A DNA stretch of 56,332 nucleotides from an uncultured Candidatus Saccharibacteria bacterium (lineage in GTDB: Bacteria; Patescibacteriota; Minisyncoccia; Phycocordibacterales; WO2-35-19): the NCBI GenBank assembly GCA_964440955.1, contig CAYTTP010000003.1, positions 1-56,332 of the forward strand, read 5' to 3'. The notes below the pieces were generated by a model that saw only the letters and a program-made list of their open reading frames with translations, ran no database searches and was not told the DNA's origin. The translations under genes and the position numbers were made by a program. Positions within the stretch are counted from its first letter, which is position 1. Every line of letters begins with the position of its first letter. Of this stretch, positions 454 through 55,077 are shown piece after piece.

Positions 454-604
454 GCGATATATACGGAAGTGTGGCTGAGTGGATGAAAAGCAAACTGCTT
501 TGCTTTTCATCCGGAGCAAAGCGTAGGTGGCAAATATGAAGCCACTGTTCGCAAAGCGACTTCCGTTTGAGCATCGCGATATATACGGAAGTGTGGCTGA
601 GTGG
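454..604 (+). repeat. 5'-side duplication of tRNA-Ser start with a 93-nt structured insert (variant of the tRNA-associated element)
   Basis: A 29-nt direct repeat GCGATATATACGGAAGTGTGGCTGAGTGG lies at 454-482 and 576-604. The insert 483-575 has a 14-bp hairpin with a CUGC apex. ACTTCCG (559-565) pairs with the duplicated acceptor 5' strand (464-470). Confidence 0.7.
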
Positions 605-7387: not shown

Positions 7388-7669
7388 ATGAAAAACTTAA
7401 CCGAATTTATAACTTTTTTTACCGATATGGGGCTTAGGCTTGTACCACTATTTGCTGTCCTCGCCTTCATGTATTTTGTGTGGGGAGTAGCACGCTTCAT
7501 CAAAGCGGCGGGCAATGAAAAAGAGGTGGGGGACAGCAAAAAGATACTTATTTGGGGTGTTGTCGGCCTACTCGTGCTTACAAGTATTTGGGGTATTATT
7601 TCCTTTCTCAAAGGTGAGCTAAGATTTGGCGACAATGTTGGTATTCCTCAAATAAAATTTGAAAATTAG
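7388..7669 (+). CDS. pilin-like small membrane protein, short form
   Basis: 93 aa with two hydrophobic helices. Shared motif: YFVWGVARFIKAAGNEKE...LIWGVVGLLVLTSIWGII. Confidence 0.6.
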   Translation: MKNLTEFITFFTDMGLRLVPLFAVLAFMYFVWGVARFIKAAGNEKEVGDSKKILIWGVVGLLVLTSIWGIISFLKGELRFGDNVGIPQIKFEN

Positions 7670-7679
7670 ATGAAATAAA

Positions 7680-7949
7680 ATGAATGATTTTATTGATAAA
7701 GGTTATTCGATTATCACCAATACTCTCATCCCGCTTGGGTACTTTGTTTGCCTCTTTTACTTTGCTTGGGGTATTGCAAAGTACATCAAATCGATCGGTG
7801 ACGGCAAGGAGCAGGGCAGGCAAATAATGATTTGGGGAGTAGTTGGCCTTTTTGTAGTTACGAGTATTTGGGGTATTATTGAATTTATAAAGCTCGAAGT
7901 TGGCTTGCCTTTCGATAATTCAGAGCTCGATGCAAAAGTTTATAGGTAA
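7680..7949 (+). CDS. pilin-like small membrane protein, short form
   Basis: 89 aa. Motif: YFAWGIAKYIKSIGDGKEQGRQIMIWGVVGLFVVTSIWGII. Confidence 0.6.
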   Translation: MNDFIDKGYSIITNTLIPLGYFVCLFYFAWGIAKYIKSIGDGKEQGRQIMIWGVVGLFVVTSIWGIIEFIKLEVGLPFDNSELDAKVYR

Positions 7950-7961
7950 AAATATAAAAAC

Positions 7962-8318
7962 ATGAAAAATAATTTTAAAAAAATAATTCCGGTTTCCCTC
8001 TTCCTTTTACCAATTTTAACAAGCGCTCAACTTGATGGGACAGACAAATTTTTTGGGAAAGCAAAGTCAATCGTAAGTGATACTTTGGTACCAGGAGCAT
8101 TTTTTGTAGCCCTCGTGTATTTCTTCTACGGTATCGCCAAATACATCAAGTCTGAAGGTGCCGGCAAAGCCGAAGGCAAAATGATCATGGTGTGGGGAGT
8201 GGTCGCTTTGTTTGTTGCTTCGTCAGTTTGGGGTTTGGTCACTCTTTTACAAAAGGAAATAGGGATAAACAGTAACCCTGGCAGTATGAAAATACCAACT
8301 TTAGAAACATATAGATAA
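7962..8318 (+). CDS. pilin-like small membrane protein, short form with signal peptide
   Basis: 118 aa. Motif: YFFYGIAKYIKSEGAGKAEGKMIMVWGVVALFVASSVWGLV. Confidence 0.6.
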   Translation: MKNNFKKIIPVSLFLLPILTSAQLDGTDKFFGKAKSIVSDTLVPGAFFVALVYFFYGIAKYIKSEGAGKAEGKMIMVWGVVALFVASSVWGLVTLLQKEIGINSNPGSMKIPTLETYR

Positions 8319-8323
8319 TATTT

Positions 8324-8620
8324 ATGCTTACAAACACCGAAACTTTTTTGAATCAAGCTATTACTCTTTTGACCAATAGAGTCATACCTATTGTCTTTAT
8401 CCTCGCTACGCTCTACTTCTTTTGGGGCATTGTCAAATACATCAAGTCGGAAGGTGCTGGCAAAGCTGAAGGAAAAGCCATTATGGTGTGGGGAGTAGTA
8501 GCCCTTTTTGTGATGACTAGCGTATGGGGCATCGTTCGCTTGTTGAGAGTTGATTTGCTTAGTGGGCAGGACACCAACAGTATCCAAATCCCAACCGCCA
8601 CTTACGGTACTACTCGCTAA
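8324..8620 (+). CDS. pilin-like small membrane protein, short form
   Basis: 98 aa. Motif: YFFWGIVKYIKSEGAGKAEGKAIMVWGVVALFVMTSVWGIV, near-identical core to the previous gene. Confidence 0.6.
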   Translation: MLTNTETFLNQAITLLTNRVIPIVFILATLYFFWGIVKYIKSEGAGKAEGKAIMVWGVVALFVMTSVWGIVRLLRVDLLSGQDTNSIQIPTATYGTTR

Positions 8621-8751
8621 CCACTTCCCACCTACTCCCTACTCCCTCTGTGGATTACTTTTTGCTTGCAAAGGCAAAAAATGGTAAAGTAATGGTAAAT
8701 TAAAAATGTTTATTCATTTTAATTATTATTAAAAAGTATTTGCTAAATTAA

Positions 8752-9096
8752 ATGAAAAAAGTATCTATAGCAGTAGCGATGGCTCTTTTGCCACTTTCAA
8801 CCTTTGCCCAACAGCTCGGCAATATCAGCAACTTAGTTGATAGCGCAAGCGGTATAATCAATAAGGTTATACCTATATTGTTTACACTTGCTTTGCTCGG
8901 CTTCTTTTGGGGCTTGGTCAGATTTCTTTTTGGTGGTGCTGAAGACAAGGATCAGGCAAAAAACATTATGATTTGGGGCGTAGTAGCGCTTGCGGTCATG
9001 GCTTCAGTTTGGGGATTGGTCAACTTCCTTGGTTCGGCATTTAACATCAACAAGGATGCCGCTCCTTCTGTAAACCCTCTTATTCCAAAACCTTAG
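8752..9096 (+). CDS. pilin-like small membrane protein, short form with signal peptide
   Basis: 114 aa. Motif: FFWGLVRFLFGGAEDKDQAKNIMIWGVVALAVMASVWGLV. Confidence 0.6.
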   Translation: MKKVSIAVAMALLPLSTFAQQLGNISNLVDSASGIINKVIPILFTLALLGFFWGLVRFLFGGAEDKDQAKNIMIWGVVALAVMASVWGLVNFLGSAFNINKDAAPSVNPLIPKP

Positions 9097-9114
9097 TTGG
9101 TCTTTGGTCTACAA

Positions 9115-9148
9115 AACAAAAGAGCCGTATTGTACGGCTCTTTTGTTT
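9115..9148. terminator. bidirectional intrinsic terminator-like hairpin
   Basis: AAAGAGCCGTA-TTG-TACGGCTCTTT, flanked by an A-run and a T-run. Confidence 0.75.
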
Positions 9149-9187
9149 TCCCTTGAATTTTATTACCTAACATTTAGAATTAGAAAT

Positions 9188-9220
9188 ATCACCCCTAGCC
9201 CCTCTTACTTTAAGAGGGGA
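9188..9220. repeat. TCACCCC-hairpin intergenic motif, copy 2
   Basis: ATCACCCCTAG followed by the hairpin CCCCTCTTA-CTT-TAAGAGGGG. The arms are the same as in copy 1. Confidence 0.55.
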
Positions 9221-9251
9221 ACAACAACTTAATTTTTAATTTTCAATCCTT

Positions 9252-9515
9252 ATGCCTGTCATCAAAAGCTTGCTCAATCAAATAGCCACACTCTTTTTGA
9301 ACCCGCTCATCATTCTTGGTTTTGTTGTTGCTACACTCTATCTTTTTTGGGGTATTGGGCAAATGATACTAAACGCCGACTCAAGCAAGCTCGACGAACA
9401 TCGGAAGGGAGTTATTTGGGGCGTTGTTGGCTTACTTATCATGTTCTCCGTTTACGGCATTCTCCGTCTTGTTATCCAAACTTTTGAGATCGAGTGTAAT
9501 TTGTATTTTTGTTAG
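9252..9515 (+). CDS. pilin-like small membrane protein, short form (divergent)
   Basis: 87 aa. Motif: LYLFWGIGQMILNADSSKLDEHRKGVIWGVVGLLIMFSVYGIL. Confidence 0.55.
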   Translation: MPVIKSLLNQIATLFLNPLIILGFVVATLYLFWGIGQMILNADSSKLDEHRKGVIWGVVGLLIMFSVYGILRLVIQTFEIECNLYFC

Positions 9516-18076: not shown

Positions 18077-18239
18077 CAATATTGTTTCGCAATATTGTTC
18101 GACCGAGCACGCAAACTGCTTTGCGTGCGTGTAGGAAGTCGAAAGCCGGAGCCATGTTGAGCGAAGCGAAACAGGCGAGGCGGGGTCGCAAGATTTTGCT
18201 AAGCAAAATACTTGTGACCGACTCCTACCGGGCGGACAA
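18059..18239 (+). repeat. tRNA-3'-end-associated structured element, type A (tRNA-Lys copy 1), with 21-nt direct repeats
   Basis: CGACTCCTACCGGGCGGACAA lies at 18059-18079 and 18219-18239. The element carries TGTTCGACCG (antisense to the acceptor 3' strand), a CUGC-apex hairpin, GTAGGAAGTCG (antisense to CGACTCCTAC), a GAGCGAAGCGAA loop, and GGGGTCGCAAG-hairpin-ACTTGTGACC. Confidence 0.78.
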
Positions 18240-18372
18240 GCGTGAAGAAAATCTAAACTGCTTTAGATTTTTAGCTTGTCCGAGACGGAGCCATGTTTTT
18301 GTAGCAACAAAAACAGGCGAGTCAGGATCGTGGAAATTTTTGAGCGACGGCGATAAAATTATCCATGATGAC
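18240..18372 (+). repeat. tRNA-3'-end-associated structured element, type A, second tandem copy (divergent 3' module)
   Basis: It starts with AGCGTGAAGAAAATCTAAACTGCTTTAGATTTTTAGCTTGT, identical to the tRNA-Ala copy. The 3' module GTCAGGATCGTGGA-hairpin-TCCATGATGAC is analogous but diverged. GACAATATTG recurs at 18075 and 18370. Confidence 0.65.
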
Positions 18373-26832: not shown

Positions 26833-26841
26833 AAATGGAAA

Positions 26842-26864
26842 GGCGTTCACTAAAAGTGAACGTC
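26842..26864 (+). terminator. hairpin after the clpB stop (weak terminator; no T-run)
   Basis: GGCGTTCAC-TAAAA-GTGAACGTC. Confidence 0.4.
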
Positions 26865-26877
26865 GATATAAAGTACT

Positions 26878-26883
26878 TATAAT
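26878..26883 (+). promoter_or_regulatory. possible -10 box for the RT leader RNA
   Basis: A perfect TATAAT. The -35 region is weak (AGTGAA at 17-nt spacing). Confidence 0.35.
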
Positions 26884-26889
26884 TCCCTA

Positions 26890-27135
26890 GAACACCACTT
26901 ATGAGCACGTGAGAGAAAGATGAACGAACATTGGTGGTGTCCTAAGCCCGAAAGTGGCGAGGGTAAGGCCGCTTGAGATCCAAGTCGGACTACCAGCATA
27001 CCCCCAAGATCTTCTGGTTTACTCTAAAGAGAGTATTCCGCTCCATCGTGTGACGATGAAGGCTGTTTTTCGACGTCTCTCACAGGTCCAAGCCGGACTG
27101 TTTTGATTGTAGCATGTTTTTATATATAAGTTTAG
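26890..27135 (+). ncRNA. candidate structured noncoding leader RNA of the RT module
   Basis: About 250 nt with no credible ORF. Stems: ACACCAC/GTGGTGT (26892-26898/26934-26940), GTGAGAGA/TCTCTCAC (26909-26916/27076-27083), CATCGT-GTG-ACGATG (27044-27058). A 13-nt direct repeat lies at 26979 and 27087. Confidence 0.45.
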
Positions 27136-28056
27136 TTGTATAAATCAAATAAAATAGGTTATCCTCTGTTCGGAGGCCTTGTGGATAAACCTGCATTTGA
27201 AAGGTATTTTCTGAGAGATGTAAATCATCAGAGTGGTAGGGTGAAAAATCGAGAAATTTTTGCTCCAAACGATTCAATGCGTGAGGTGCAAGAGGGTATA
27301 GTGGCCAAACTTCGGTCTTTGGAGATTGAGATGCCGAGCGCGACTGGTGGTGTCAGGAATGGTTCGCCAGTCAATAACGTCCTCAAACATTGGTCACCTT
27401 ACAATAAGAGTGCGAGATACTTTTTTCTGCTTGATCTAGCATCTGCTTACAAGAATGTCCTTGTGAGCGATATGTTAGTTGAACTGAAGAGGGTGTGGCC
27501 ACATGATTGCGACGAGAAGTTTGTTCAGAGTGTTATGAATCACTGCTTGATACCGGGTGAGGGTTTGGCAACTGGAGGTAACGCCTCGCCAGATATTTTC
27601 AACCTATGTATGGAGATTTCGATTGATCGGCAAATACGCTCGTATGCCGAATACAACGATCTCACCTACACTCGTTATCTCGATGATCTGACTTTCTCAT
27701 CTCCTTTTCCGATAGGTAAGAGGAAGAGGAATACGATCATCAAGATTCTCACTGAAGCTGGTTGTGTCGTTAACCATCAAAAGTCTCAGGTGCTTGATAT
27801 CGAAAAGCATCATGTGGAAATAAATGGTATCGGCTTGCGTCGTAGCGGACACTTCTTCATGCCTAGTCGGGTCTTGGATGAGTTAAAAAACTTGCTCTAT
27901 CGGGCAACTAGAGGGGAGTCCATTTCCGATTCTCTCATTCAAGGCAAGATGGGCGGGTTCATCTATCTTAGGAGAAAAGGCTTGCTTGCTCTGACCGAGA
28001 GAGAACGTAATATCCTTCGACGGTACGAGCAATATCTGCCGTTGCGCCGGGGTTAA
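27136..28056 (+). CDS. reverse transcriptase, minimal stand-alone type (retron/defence-RT-like)
   Basis: RT motifs: NREIFAPNDSMREVQ, SATGGVRNGSPVNNVLKH, FFLLDLASAY, GLATGGNASPDIFNL, YTRYLDDLTFSS (27676-27687), VNHQKS, EINGIGL. The likely true start is GTG 27181, behind GGAGG at 27172-27176. Confidence 0.88.
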   Translation: MYKSNKIGYPLFGGLVDKPAFERYFLRDVNHQSGRVKNREIFAPNDSMREVQEGIVAKLRSLEIEMPSATGGVRNGSPVNNVLKHWSPYNKSARYFFLLDLASAYKNVLVSDMLVELKRVWPHDCDEKFVQSVMNHCLIPGEGLATGGNASPDIFNLCMEISIDRQIRSYAEYNDLTYTRYLDDLTFSSPFPIGKRKRNTIIKILTEAGCVVNHQKSQVLDIEKHHVEINGIGLRRSGHFFMPSRVLDELKNLLYRATRGESISDSLIQGKMGGFIYLRRKGLLALTERERNILRRYEQYLPLRRG

Positions 28057-28130
28057 ATCCTCGGCGCTCTGTTTTTAATAGTGTGTAAAAATTTTGAAAT
28101 ATCTGGTATTGTGTGCGGAGGAGGTGAACT

Positions 28131-28535
28131 ATGTCCAGTATCTCGAATAGAGAAATGACATTTGTTGTAGCTGTTCTGTACTCTTTGCCCGAAAAGTGGC
28201 GAGGGGTTGGCCGTTCTTTCTCGTTTGAGGATGTGCAAGATAGGCTACATCTTGCTTGGCATAGACTCTATCAAGAAGGATTGCTTGGGGAGTTTGGTGA
28301 ATCGTTTTCTTTTGACGCTCTTTGTGGCTCAGACAGTCTTGGGCAAGCACTTCGCACAGCTGCGGTAGATGGGCTCATAAGGATCGGTGGCTCTGATATG
28401 GCTTATCATGTTGATGTCCTGAAGCCTGACCAAATTGATCGTATGTTAGAGTCGTGCGTAATAGACCGAAGTGCCGTGACTACTGCTGTCAAACGTCTCG
28501 AAGCTATTCTCGAAGAGAAACCCTCCCCGGCTTAG
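28131..28535 (+). CDS. hypothetical 134-aa protein, RT-associated
   Basis: Strong RBS GGAGGAGG 7 nt upstream of the ATG. Same strand as the RT and 74 nt after it. No motif recognised. Confidence 0.6.
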   Translation: MSSISNREMTFVVAVLYSLPEKWRGVGRSFSFEDVQDRLHLAWHRLYQEGLLGEFGESFSFDALCGSDSLGQALRTAAVDGLIRIGGSDMAYHVDVLKPDQIDRMLESCVIDRSAVTTAVKRLEAILEEKPSPA

Positions 28536-28597: not shown

Positions 28598-28681
28598 GCG
28601 TCGGTGGTAGAGTGGTCAATTACAACAGACTGTAAATCTGTCGCCCATTGGGCTACGCAGGTTCGAATCCTGCCCGGCGCA
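28598..28681 (+). tRNA. tRNA-Tyr(GUA), class II, no CCA encoded
   Basis: Acceptor GCGTCGG/CCGGCGC, anticodon arm CAGAC-TGTAAAT-CTG, long variable arm CGCCCATTGGGC, T arm GCAGG-TTCGAAT-CCTGC, A73. Confidence 0.88.
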
Positions 28682-28872
28682 CAAAATAAAACCCAGCTTC
28701 TGCTGGTGTTTTATTTTGTGCGCCGGAAGTGCAGCTTTGTGTAGCAAAGCGTAGCACGGATTCGAAAGGCGGAAGAAATTTTTTAGCAAAAAAATTTCTG
28801 AGCCGGGGTCGCGAGCGATTTTGCTTGACTGAAGCAAAATCGACTTGTGACCGAATCCTGCCCGGCGCACCA
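28664..28872 (+). repeat. tRNA-3'-end-associated structured element, type A (tRNA-Tyr copy), with 19-nt direct repeats
   Basis: CGAATCCTGCCCGGCGCAC lies at 28664-28682 and 28852-28870; the second copy reads through to ...ACCA. Internal antisense segments are GTGCGCCGG (28718-28726) and GCACGGATTCG (28754-28764). The 3' module GGTCGCGAG-hairpin-CTTGTGACC is at 28807-28852. Confidence 0.8.
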
Positions 28873-36470: not shown

Positions 36471-36534
36471 TTAAGTGGCATAATAGCGGTCTCCAAAACC
36501 GCGGTCGTGGGTTCGATTCCCTCATCACCCGCCA
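36461..36534 (+). tRNA. tRNA-Trp(CCA), CCA encoded
   Basis: Acceptor GGGTGAT/ATCACCC, anticodon arm GCGGT-CTCCAAA-ACCGC, T arm GTGGG-TTCGATT-CCCTC, then G73-CCA. Confidence 0.9.
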
Positions 36535-36588
36535 AGTCGGGTAGCGCCCGAGACGCGTTAATGAAATACTTTTTAGGTTTTGCATAGA
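36510..36588 (+). repeat. att-like repeat A (tRNA-Trp 3' end plus trailer)
   Basis: GGTTCGATTCC...CCCGCCAAGTCG-hairpin-AGACGCGTTAATGAAATAC-TTTTTAGGTTTTGCATAGA aligns with 37861-37939. Confidence 0.65.
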
Positions 36589-37763: not shown

Positions 37764-37805
37764 ACAGAAGTTCAGACCCAATTTTGTTACCGCCCGAGAT
37801 GCTTC

Positions 37806-37939
37806 GATTATGCTAGTATAAAAATAATAAGAAAAGCCTTGTGGTGCAATGAACAAAAGAGGTTCGAATCCGAGACGGCCCGCCAAGTCGTGCACAGCAC
37901 GAGATGCATTAATGAAATAGTTTTCTAATTTTGCATAGA
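37806..37939 (+). repeat. att-like repeat B (tRNA-3'-end-like GGTTCGAATCCGAGACGGCCCGCCA with shared flanks)
   Basis: 37861-37939 matches repeat A. 37806-37885 matches 38878-38957 (TGCTAGTATAAAA...CTTGTGG...CCGAGACGGCCCGC). No cloverleaf can be drawn. Confidence 0.6.
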
Positions 37940-38390: not shown

Positions 38391-38879
38391 ATGAGGAATT
38401 CTACTCTTGTTTTTTTGGTTAAAAGGAATACTAGCAAGAATATTGAAAATATTTGTCTTGCTATGAAAAAGAGAGGCTTTGGGGCTGGGCGATATAACGG
38501 CACAGGTGGAAAGGTAGAAGAAGAAACTATAGAAGAAGCAGCCATTCGGGAAACAAGAGAGGAGATTGGTGTTCAAGTGGAAAATTTAGTTAAAGTTGCA
38601 AAATTAGAATTTAGATTTCCACATAATCCAGCATGGGATCAGATAGTGCATGTATTTTTGTCAGAAATTTGGGATGGAGAACTGACGGAAAGTGAAGAGA
38701 TGAAACCAGAATGGTTTTCGGTTAGTAAGATTCCATACGATACTATGTGGCCAGATGATAAGTTCTGGTTGCCAAAAGTTATTGCTGGAGATCTGATTAA
38801 AGGTAGTTTCGTCTTTGGTGAGAATGATATTGTAGTTCAGCAAGAAGTCGATGTGGTATCTATGTTCAGGGAAGCTTAG
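38391..38879 (+). CDS. NUDIX hydrolase (MutT-like)
   Basis: Nudix box GGKVEEETIEEAAIRETREEIGV. Confidence 0.85.
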   Translation: MRNSTLVFLVKRNTSKNIENICLAMKKRGFGAGRYNGTGGKVEEETIEEAAIRETREEIGVQVENLVKVAKLEFRFPHNPAWDQIVHVFLSEIWDGELTESEEMKPEWFSVSKIPYDTMWPDDKFWLPKVIAGDLIKGSFVFGENDIVVQQEVDVVSMFREA

Positions 38880-38957
38880 ATTGTGCTAGTATAAAATTGA
38901 TTAGAAAAATCTTGTGGGACGACAAACTTAAAATGTTTGAACCCGAGACGGCCCGCA
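38878..38957 (+). repeat. att-like repeat C (partial)
   Basis: TTGTGCTAGTATAAAATTG...TCTTGTGGGACGACAAAC...TTTGAACCCGAGACGGCCCGCA aligns with 37806-37885. Confidence 0.55.
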
Positions 38958-41030: not shown

Positions 41031-41190
41031 CAGATTGAGCAAAGCGAAAGTGGTGTCGGAGAGGCGTAGCTTTTTGTAAAAAAGCGTTACGCGGACTTGA
41101 AACCCGATTGAGATTTTTTAGGAGTATCGCGAACTAAAAAACCAATTGGGGTACTGAGTCTGTAAGACTCAAGTCCTCTCTCCGGCACCA
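41012..41190 (+). repeat. tRNA-3'-end-associated structured element, type B (tRNA-Leu copy), with 20-nt direct repeats
   Basis: TCAAGTCCTCTCTCCGGCAC lies at 41012-41031 and 41169-41188; the second copy ends ...ACCA. TGGTGTCGGAGAGG (41051-41064) is antisense to CCTCTCTCCGGCACCA. GGACTTGA (41093-41100) is antisense to TCAAGTCC. It begins with GAGCAAAGCGAAAG. Confidence 0.78.
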
Positions 41191-45933: not shown

Positions 45934-46116
45934 AATACGAAGTAACGAATTGATTGCGAATATATACGAATGTATCTAAGAATAAATGGAAAAGGCGGAA
46001 AATGCAAAATCGCACCTCAAACAGACCTCACCCTCGCTCCGCTCTCCTTACAGGAGCTGTACACCTTTCGCATTAGGAAATGCTCAAGGTCTTGCGAAGC
46101 TCCACGCATTCACTTC

Positions 46117-46143
46117 TCACCCTCTCCTAGACTTAGGAGAGGG
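46117..46143. repeat. TCACCC-hairpin intergenic motif, copy 4
   Basis: TCTCAC, then the hairpin CCCTCTCCTA-GACT-TAGGAGAGGG. Confidence 0.45.
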
Positions 46144-54729: not shown

Positions 54730-55061
54730 TCCGGGATAGCTCAGCGGTAGAGCGAGCGACTGTGTCGTGACGCAGCTTCCAAAAGAAATTTTGGTTGAAA
54801 AACGAGGTGAATTCGGGGGAACCCCAAGTGGGCAATCCCGAGCCAATCCTAAATTAAAGAAAGATATTGTTGTGTAAAAACTTTAATTAAGGCAGGTGTA
54901 GAGACTATTCCGAAAGGAAGTACTTACTCCGTATTTCGGAGTCGGGAAGCGCCTCGCTCCTAATAGCCAATTTGGTTAAAGGAGATGATATAGTCCATAC
55001 TTCTAGTAATAGAAGAGAATATGTAATCGCTTGGTCGTAGGTTCGATCCCTACTCCCGGAG
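54730..55061 (+). tRNA. tRNA-Asn(GUU) interrupted by a group I intron in the anticodon loop; no CCA encoded
   Basis: Exons 54730-54763 and 55024-55061 join to give acceptor TCCGGGA/TCCCGGA (U1:A72, G73 as in tRNA-Asn), anticodon arm AGCGA-CTGTTAA-TCGCT, T arm GTAGG-TTCGATC-CCTAC. Confidence 0.85.
54764..55023 (+). ncRNA. group I intron (IC3-like), 260 nt, no ORF
   Basis: The 5' exon ends in U and the intron ends in G. GCAG (54772-54775) can pair with the exon CUGU as P1. The core strings GAATTCGGGGGAACCCCAAG, GAGCCAA and GGTGTAGAGACTA (54895-54907) match the conserved core of bacterial tRNA group I introns. Confidence 0.85.
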
Positions 55062-55077
55062 CAAAGGAATTTAATAT

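Follow-up and report, generated by a model that had tools for sequence, protein, structure and literature searches.

A structured non-coding module carrying a copied tRNA-Ser 5' end in a Saccharibacteria contig, and its relatives at tRNA gene ends

The stretch of DNA analysed in this study (the window; 56,332 nucleotides (nt) of contig CAYTTP010000003.1, assembly GCA_964440955.1) comes from an uncultured Candidatus Saccharibacteria bacterium, and the element in question is a module at 454-575 on the 5' side of an intact tRNA-Ser(CGA) gene (587-674; found by ARAGORN and by Rfam, 58.5 bits). All features of this locus lie on the + strand. A 34-nt repeat with one mismatch (454-487 and 576-609) includes an exact 29-nt part (454-482 and 576-604), and the repeat search and ARAGORN agree with the original prediction, made from the letters alone, that these 29 nt consist of 11 nt of flank and tRNA positions 1-18 and bracket an insert of 93 nt (483-575). 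The first copy is a spare 5' arm made of the leader GCGATATATAC (454-464) and tRNA-Ser positions 1-18 (465-482); the second, of the same composition, belongs to the functional gene. The module is a member of a widespread, hitherto undescribed small non-coding family located at tRNA gene ends.

The core of the module opens with a CUGC-tipped hairpin, TGGATGAAAAGCAAA-CTGC-TTTGCTTTTCATCCG (480-513), whose 14-nt arms (481-494 and 499-512) are 100% complementary around the CTGC loop, a T.G pair lengthening the stem to 480-513. The prediction had assigned this hairpin to the insert; the perfect 14-bp stem is there, but its first two Gs (481-482) belong to the repeat, so that a tRNA-derived GG (G17/G18 region) stands at the stem base. 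The second conserved core element follows at 514-523, a mini-hairpin motif GAGCAAAGCG (GAGCRAAGCG; GC-AAA-GC bounded by G and A) with nearly invariant columns. Next come a small hairpin, GTGGC-loop-GCCAC (527-545), with counterparts in the relatives L086, L102, and L091, and a second mini-hairpin, TCGC-AAA-GCGA (549-559), which bulges out of the closing strand and has the homologue CCGC-GAA-GCGG in L086 and L102. The closing strand ACTTCCG (559-565) is a copy of the tRNA acceptor 3' strand and discriminator. As predicted, it complements CGGAAGT at 464-470, but it does not end the insert, since ten more bases, the spacer TTTGAGCATC (566-575), lie between the closing strand and the second repeat copy. 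The palindrome ATCGCGAT at 573-580 was considered as the signature of a hairpin intermediate and was dropped, as it does not recur in the relatives.

GCCAC(T) at 541-546 has an alternative partner in the copied GTGGC at 472-476, and in this way the arm can form a duplex with the insert's 3' part. Together, GCCAC (541-545) and ACTTCCG (559-565) pair with 464-476, and the resulting helix of roughly 14 bp, with interruptions, closes the module; the spare arm thus finds its complement in the 3' part of the insert and is locked into this helix, here called the clamp. Segment 464-565 adopts a closed multi-branch fold at -43.7 kcal/mol (z = -5.2), and none of 200 shuffled sequences folds as well. By partition function, the pairs of 559-565 with 464-470 have probabilities of 0.76-0.98. 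When 440-680 is folded, the same closure and the tRNA cloverleaf both form, and ATCGC at the spacer edge (573-577) can pair with GCGAT (454-458). The closed fold of this segment is as foreseen, but its likeness to an acceptor stem does not extend to a match with the tRNA model: RF00005 of Rfam gives no hit over 454-575 even at E<=10, and ARAGORN finds only 587-674.

No known RNA family was recognised in the module. In a scan of the whole window with 4227 Rfam covariance models at the gathering threshold, only tRNAs and a group I intron were detected, and a scan of 380-1600 at E<=10 gave nothing credible. Readings of the module as a K-turn, an H/ACA-like pocket, or a Y RNA/Ro site, and of the CUGC tip as an anticodon loop, were inspected by eye and rejected for lack of the required features. 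A full-text literature search that included the sequence motifs found no description of a CUGC-hairpin module family, nor is the family mentioned in a paper on Patescibacteria tRNA introns (PMC13011429).

A mirror element is located on the 3' side of the same tRNA-Ser (701-850), where an insert of 100 nt (701-800) is followed by 50 nt (801-850) that copy 651-700 (98%). The copied segment covers the T loop, the tRNA end, and 26 nt of flank, and the insert also has a closed fold (z = -4.7). As the 50-nt copy reaches into the flank and includes the start codon of the open reading frame (ORF) 840-1262, the ribosome-binding site and ATG of this ORF are duplicated, and a 16-codon ORF (690-740) now follows the first copy.

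At least six copies of the module family are present in the window. Four further tRNAs on the + strand are followed by inserts of 100-170 nt, and after the inserts of tRNA-Lys, tRNA-Tyr, and tRNA-Leu(CAA) the sequence from the T loop to the tRNA 3' end is repeated. The element of tRNA-Lys (insert 18080-18218, copy 18219-18239) is in tandem with a second one that starts at 18240 (to 18370); those of tRNA-Tyr and tRNA-Leu(CAA) comprise inserts 28683-28851 and 41032-41168 with copies 28852-28870 and 41169-41188, respectively. At tRNA-Ala (insert 1400-1537) only 10 nt (CCACAAGCGT) recur. The 3' elements show two types of end, GGGGTCGCGAG-hairpin-ACTTGTGACC and GGTGTACTG-hairpin with a TGTAA loop. 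The Ala and second Lys elements share a 90%-identical hairpin region, which is followed in each by 4 nt complementary to the last 4 nt of its own tRNA (TGGA versus TCCG). The five element-bearing tRNAs (Ser, Ala, Lys, Tyr, and Leu-CAA) are all on the + strand, which is the G-rich one; none of the four tRNAs on the - strand carries an element.

A covariance model, R1, was built (alignment A2) exclusively from 5'-type cores of other genomes and the window copy, whose inclusion had been proposed with the prediction and which scores 75 bits at 477-529. R1 matches the elements of Ala (1402-1482, E = 1e-4), Lys (second element, 18240-18290, E = 7e-4; first element, 18105-18174, E = 1e-3), and Tyr (28674-28757, E = 7e-3), and gives a weak match on that of Leu(CAA). 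As the 3' elements are thus detected by a model of 5' cores, both forms share one core. The earlier idea of a mirror image within a single family is therefore upheld, and the 3' elements obey the mirror rule. An orphan element-like sequence (…GGTGTACAGCTCCTGTAAGGAG…) was also noticed on the minus strand at 46029-46130, with no adjoining tRNA detected and a weak R1 match (E about 1).

Relatives in other genomes were collected with the pattern AAACTGCTTT-N(11-41)-GAGCRAAGCGWA. In species-representative genomes it found 83 stretches against roughly 8 expected by our own chance estimate, mostly in Saccharibacteria, Paceibacterota/Parcubacteria, and other lineages of the candidate phyla radiation (CPR), the remaining matches being in Elusimicrobia, a ruminal alphaproteobacterial metagenome-assembled genome (MAG), and Campylobacterota. 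A second pattern, tuned to a subfamily with an A-rich hairpin, found 42 metagenome contigs. Viral contigs gave 0 matches to the first pattern, and a phage origin of the module was rejected on that result. Since the architecture recurs in dozens of other genomes, a chance origin is excluded.

Many relatives are of the 5' type, with cores nearly identical to that of the window (TGG|ATGAAAAGCAAACTGCTTTGCTTTTCATCC GAGCRAAGCGAGG), and lie upstream of tRNA-Ser(CGA, GCU), Leu(CAA, GAG, TAG), Tyr, Cys, and Glu, an intact gene following in each case. Their core lies on the tRNA sense strand and is joined directly behind the D-loop GG (G18G19) of the partial tRNA copy; the window junction GAGTGG|ATGAAAAGC is identical in L040, L086, L094, L095, and L101. 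Exceptions are L063 and L068 at tRNA-Gln, in which the partial copy is longer and reaches the anticodon region and the T loop, respectively. In the 3' type, the copied segment almost always begins at C56 of the T loop. G19 and C56, the two fixed junctions, pair with each other at the tRNA elbow. The module is gene-less and about 75-160 nt in size, and at tRNAs it is always oriented along the tRNA sense strand, with the same core order in the 5' and 3' forms. Two core features characterise the family, a long hairpin tipped by AAACUGCUUU and one or more GAGCRAAGCG mini-hairpins, and the window copy has both.

The CUGC hairpin is conserved as a structure, on which selection acts. Across 20 cores, 94.6% of the cells are paired, as compared with 38-53% in slid controls, and nine pairs have changed on both sides (34 cells), a level reached by none of 500 shuffles. 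The apex and the adjoining A/U tracts are invariant across the cores. The ratio of G.T to A.C in the hairpin stem (10:4) was too weak to serve as a strand or RNA signature.

The clamp is specific to the tRNA beside it. In 15 independent 5'-type relatives, the 3' part of the insert pairs with its own arm at -18.6 kcal/mol and with the arms of others at -13.1 kcal/mol, a difference attained by 0 of 10000 permutations; the pairing is strong in 11 of the 15. These relatives are thus not plain duplications without a compensating strand. The sequences change together: GGAAGT/ACTTCC in the window, GGAGG/CCTCC in L086 and L102, GGAAG/CTTCC in L098, GCCGGGATGG/CCATCCCGGC in L094, and GCCCGGGTG/CACCCGGGC in L101, the pairing in L115 and L120 likewise tracking their own tRNA. 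The pseudo-copy of L068 has a compensatory A6-T67 where its real tRNA has G6-C67. In L086 the clamp is remodelled, with the pairing shifted into the leader, and the Ser(CGA) elements share the exact sub-architecture of the window (GCCAC, a bulged GCRAAGC mini-hairpin, and the acceptor 3' strand). In the 3' type, 14 nt before the hairpin pair with the last 10 nt of the tRNA and 18 nt after it pair with the T loop and the 3' strand of the T stem, both specifically for the neighbouring tRNA; own and other arms give -12.1 versus -6.1 and -17.1 versus -9.6 kcal/mol (0 of 10000 permutations each). The comparative data largely uphold the structure that the original prediction proposed. It had named as the conserved property a structured body that a copied acceptor helix clamps. 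What is conserved is indeed a copied tRNA end paired to its complement, but not the acceptor helix as such, as the clamp of the 3' elements includes the T loop and T-stem 3' strand, and that of several 5' elements uses tRNA positions 5-19 or 8-12.

As for the origin of the arms, the acceptor 3' strand of the insert in the window and in L101 is the tRNA's own 3' strand with the discriminator, and the acceptor 3' strand of 5' elements may have been inherited from a disrupted tRNA copy. Such inheritance cannot account for the T-loop complements of the 3' type. A plain pseudo-tRNA, i.e. a decayed tandem duplicate, was rejected for the same reason; it would fit the acceptor 3' strand and the tRNA sequence that resumes in L041 and L039. 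Simple templating of the arms is also unlikely because they contain tandem G.A mismatches and are not perfect templated copies.

The only promoter-like site in 360-900 is a sigma-70-like match, TTGCTA-16-TATAAT (416-443, 10 of 12 positions, by consensus alone), upstream of the partial copy; there is none in 454-587, and no terminator-like site was found in 360-900. Therefore, the module, apparently without a promoter of its own, seems to form the 5' leader of pre-tRNA-Ser, transcribed from 416-443, which RNase P would remove by cutting at the predicted site 586/587. In such a transcript, a spare 5' arm left unpaired, being made ahead of the real one, would take the 3' acceptor strand of the tRNA, leading to a misfolded essential tRNA. 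The partition function of transcript 450-680 is consistent with this: in the wild type the real acceptor stem has a probability of 0.98 and the decoy pairing (spare arm with tRNA 3' strand) 0.015, as compared with 0.19 and 0.80 when 541-565 is shuffled and 0.23 and 0.76 when it is deleted. The clamp thus probably locks the spare piece of tRNA so that the real tRNA can still fold. Since decoy and clamp are both transcribed ahead of the tRNA, the clamp is plausibly there to neutralise the decoy arm, and selection may have kept it for that reason.

Several observations bear on mobility. In one MAG, three copies at different tRNAs (L017 at Phe, L032 at Leu, and L070 at Pro) have near-identical bodies with arms matched to each tRNA. 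The presence of the module at orthologous tRNAs is patchy: in a Paceibacterota MAG (L039) syntenic with the window's divergent tRNA-Glu/tRNA-Ser, the Ser 5' side is empty and a 5' element sits on Glu; L095 has a 5' element on a tRNA-Tyr closely resembling that of the window, whose own 5' side is empty; and a Cys-Leu-Lys-Leu tRNA cluster beside infB carries differing elements in five genomes. Copies away from tRNAs exist as well. In Campylobacteraceae MAGs (L016, L020, L021, L022, and L082), variable numbers of units form part of roughly 500-bp repeats with TTAAACCCAAATTTTGCATTAG terminal inverted repeats (TIRs) and no tRNA, and in the Sulfurovum-like L034, L099, and L113 a single CUGC/GAGCRAAGCG unit lies within an ORF, again with no tRNA. 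Tandem and truncated copies occur. Two or more elements have accreted at one tRNA in L045 (3049-4260), L104 (4000-4283), and L070 (4700-5062). One tRNA-Cys among the relatives has a plain 94-nt tandem duplication of its upstream region.

Overall, it appears that the module may be, or may recently have been, mobile DNA, non-autonomous and moved by some trans-acting activity. The combined reading, in which 454-575 is a mobile, non-autonomous, structured module that is co-transcribed as a pre-tRNA leader and whose clamp is kept to neutralise the decoy arm, has in our judgement about an even chance of being correct.

A number of results weigh against this reading. Pfam scans of about 38 ORFs of the window showed no integrase or transposase, and in an all-versus-all clustering of 925 flank ORFs only syntenic housekeeping genes recur, with no linked enzyme; islands between distant tRNA copies, with translations and cargo labels read by eye, likewise have no recognisable recombinase. 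The duplications have a constant boundary towards the elbow and a varying one on the outside: the 5' duplication starts at 0 to -12 of the leader and the 3' duplication ends +0 to +33 past the tRNA, unlike a classical target-site duplication of fixed length. In the 3' type, roughly two thirds of the duplications have their outer end at the discriminator +0-2; in L006, L036, and L046 it falls where a terminator U-tract stops. Even recent copies have arms that fit each tRNA, which simple cut-and-paste does not explain. A larger 5' subtype (L039, L041/L100, and L095) is without an acceptor clamp; in it the tRNA sequence resumes after the core, AGACGCACTAGCCT of L041 being tRNA positions 21-34. 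The orthologous-looking Ser(CGA) elements (window, L051, L086, L102, and L123) could mean long-term functional retention. Finally, for the 3' insert of tRNA-Ser, equilibrium folding goes the opposite way, with the tRNA 5' strand paired to the distal copy. Therefore, the insulation argument rests on the order of transcription and not on thermodynamics alone, and for the 3' elements insulation would depend on the tRNA folding first.

Among the other explanations, the module could be a domesticated small RNA of about 100-120 nt, freed by RNase P (by RNase Z in the 3' forms), for which the clamp would give defined ends and stability and in which the hairpin tip and the GAGCRAAGCG loops would bind a protein or RNA in trans. 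Strong sequence conservation of the apex AAACUGCUUU and of GAGCRAAGCG extends across phyla, with covarying stems, the tRNA sense orientation and the core order are constant, Ser(CGA) elements of one specific sub-architecture occur in several lineages, and the clamp can be remodelled without being lost, as in L086. All of this would suit a functional RNA, but the patchy distribution at orthologous tRNAs and the tandem and truncated copies would not; neither would the copies within ORFs and in the TIR-bounded repeats of Campylobacterota, the lack of a conserved neighbouring gene among the flank ORFs, or the lack of an Rfam family. Such a role is, on balance, unlikely.

It is also conceivable that the arms act as guides for insertion. 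The anti-arm of a single-stranded module (DNA or RNA) would pair with the end of a tRNA gene and direct an unlinked enzyme to G19 or C56, the arms being re-specified for each tRNA. The matched arms on near-identical bodies at Phe, Leu, and Pro, the 4-nt matches of the Ala and Lys elements, and the fixed junctions are compatible with such guidance without demanding it, and we regard it as a speculative idea with a rather low probability. If true, the module would be an insertion element of about 100 nt that is guided by nucleic acid, naturally programmable, and directed at tRNA genes. Retroposition of a mature tRNA is disfavoured because neither copy carries CCA; moreover, the boundary is C56 and not the expected m1A58 stop position, and the retron-type reverse transcriptase of the window lies 26 kb away.

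The duplicated tRNA ends are reminiscent of integrative elements that target tRNA genes and leave partial copies as attL and attR, such as mycobacteriophage L5 and P4-type islands. The module could accordingly be the footprint of a tyrosine-integrase-type element that was lost or miniaturised, with att-like tRNA copies around a short remnant. As in such elements, a partial copy of a tRNA end flanks the inserted DNA while the gene stays intact, and elements accrete in tandem at one tRNA; at some loci larger islands are flanked by tRNA 3' copies. The identity block of the 3' forms, including those of the window, mostly extends from the T-loop nucleotide C56 to the 3' end of the tRNA, which is the classical sublocation of integrase att cores. 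At the 5' element of tRNA-Ser, however, leader and positions 1-18 are duplicated and not this segment, and no integrase class is known to us whose 5'-end duplications join at the D loop. Nor was an integrase found in the Pfam-scanned ORFs of the window, in island ORFs read by eye, or in the flanks of the loci, and the pattern has no match in viral contigs. The insert is short (90-160 nt), and it contains both a complement to the copied arm and a conserved hairpin core that covaries, neither of which a remnant would retain. To the left of the T-loop copy, different tRNAs have one and the same sequence (…GTGAC), which shows none of the T-stem mimicry expected of a symmetric core site. An integration footprint is therefore very improbable.

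The module may alternatively be regarded as a cis-acting switch, in which the complement strand, placed between two identical tRNA arms, could pair with either of them and a core-binding factor would decide on folding or processing of the tRNA. The order of arm copy, core, anti-arm, spacer, and real arm, mirrored on the 3' side, is a two-state topology, and whether the real or the decoy pairing prevails in the predicted ensembles depends on the clamp. This topology arises automatically from any duplication with a clamp, however, and elements are found on many tRNAs without a pattern, in non-tRNA contexts, and, in the larger 5' subtype, without a clamp, which leaves a regulatory switch highly doubtful. 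A chance local duplication by replication slippage beside an unrelated hairpin has practically no probability, for although short tandem duplications do occur, dozens of independent relatives with the same junction, core, and clamp refute it.

The module resembles several other known kinds of element but has the defining features of none, and it is classified here as a non-autonomous repeat, small and structured, whose speciality is the ends of tRNA genes. It has in common with MITEs (miniature inverted-repeat transposable elements), repetitive extragenic palindromic sequences and their mosaics (REP/BIME), BOX, Correia, and Rickettsia palindromic elements that it is gene-less, multi-copy, patchy, and hairpin-forming, with modular unit numbers, and that it can sit in transcripts and even in ORFs. 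It differs from these small interspersed repeats in that its ends are built from the neighbouring tRNA, with junctions at the elbow nucleotides G19 and C56. Unlike a MITE, the CPR module has neither conserved TIRs nor a target duplication of fixed length, its only inverted ends being tRNA-derived and tRNA-specific; TIRs of the MITE kind occur only in the host repeat of Campylobacteraceae.

IS200/IS605 single-strand transposons and their non-autonomous derivatives, the palindrome-associated transposable elements (PATE), are similarly strand-specific and have subterminal hairpins instead of TIRs. In IS200/IS605, nucleotides at the foot of the hairpin recognise the target beside the left end through base pairing, and the 4 nt after the hairpin of the Ala and second Lys elements, which correspond to the last 4 nt of each tRNA, are comparable. 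In contrast to IS200/IS605, the module pairs over 12-20 nt and not 4-5, a duplicated tRNA end is unexpected there, and no TnpA or TnpB was found in the window ORFs. No leading- or lagging-strand bias was seen by GC skew across 120 tRNAs, the skew being noisy over 8-kb loci, and replication-coupled single-strand transposition was regarded as less likely on this result.

Like MALAT1 mascRNA and mitochondrial punctuation, the module has a tRNA-derived helix in a longer transcript that RNase P or RNase Z could potentially recognise and that could set the ends of an RNA, but of a tRNA it has no more than an acceptor-like helix and a portion of the D arm, with no T arm and no match to the tRNA model. 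It shares with the folded single-stranded att sites of CTX-type phages the order of target copy, spacer, inverted copy, body, and target copy, which is the trace expected when a folded single strand resembling its target integrates; no phage, Xer/dif, or circular single-stranded evidence accompanies it, and the likeness is one of topology only. It also differs from retron non-coding RNA, as the elements are dispersed at tRNAs and the retron-type reverse transcriptase (RT) of the window (27136-28056) is 26 kb from the tRNA-Ser element. This RT was recognised by PADLOC (RT_II-A, 1.7e-23) and NCBIfam (retron St85, 1e-21), and nothing ties it to the elements. Its unit (26833-28535) stands directly before tRNA-Tyr and includes 300 nt of upstream non-coding sequence, possibly msr/msd, and an unannotated downstream ORF of 134 amino acids.

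Although the genomes of CPR bacteria (Patescibacteria) are tiny and their tRNA genes single-copy, a module that duplicates part of the tRNA borders many of these genes, on either side. Gene annotation is affected since partial copies and pseudo-tRNAs appear; the module would also affect pre-tRNA processing and possibly genome dynamics across phyla (CPR, Elusimicrobia, and Campylobacterota). The pairing of the spare tRNA end with its complement in the insert, the larger subtype excepted, suggests how a parasite of essential RNA genes can spare the host gene, and an explanation of the match between arm and tRNA could reveal a new insertion mechanism.

Some other features of the window deserve a description. 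The sequence that follows tRNA-Trp (36510-36588) is repeated twice (37798-37939 and 38871-38956) at a spacing of about 1.0-1.35 kb. These repeats carry a different tRNA-like 3' end (GGTTCGAATCCGAGACGGCCCGCCA) and bracket small cargo ORFs (DUF4406-like and NUDIX), in the manner of very small islands strung together. At 7388-9515, a series of small paralogous ORFs (about 90-140 amino acids each), by eye small membrane proteins, occurs together with repeated DNA segments. The group I intron (54754-55016, Rfam 78 bits) lies within 54730-55072 and splits a tRNA that ARAGORN missed; by eye, the exons are those of a tRNA-Asn(GUU) with the intron in or beside the anticodon, an arrangement that resembles the tRNA introns described from Patescibacteria (PMC13011429).

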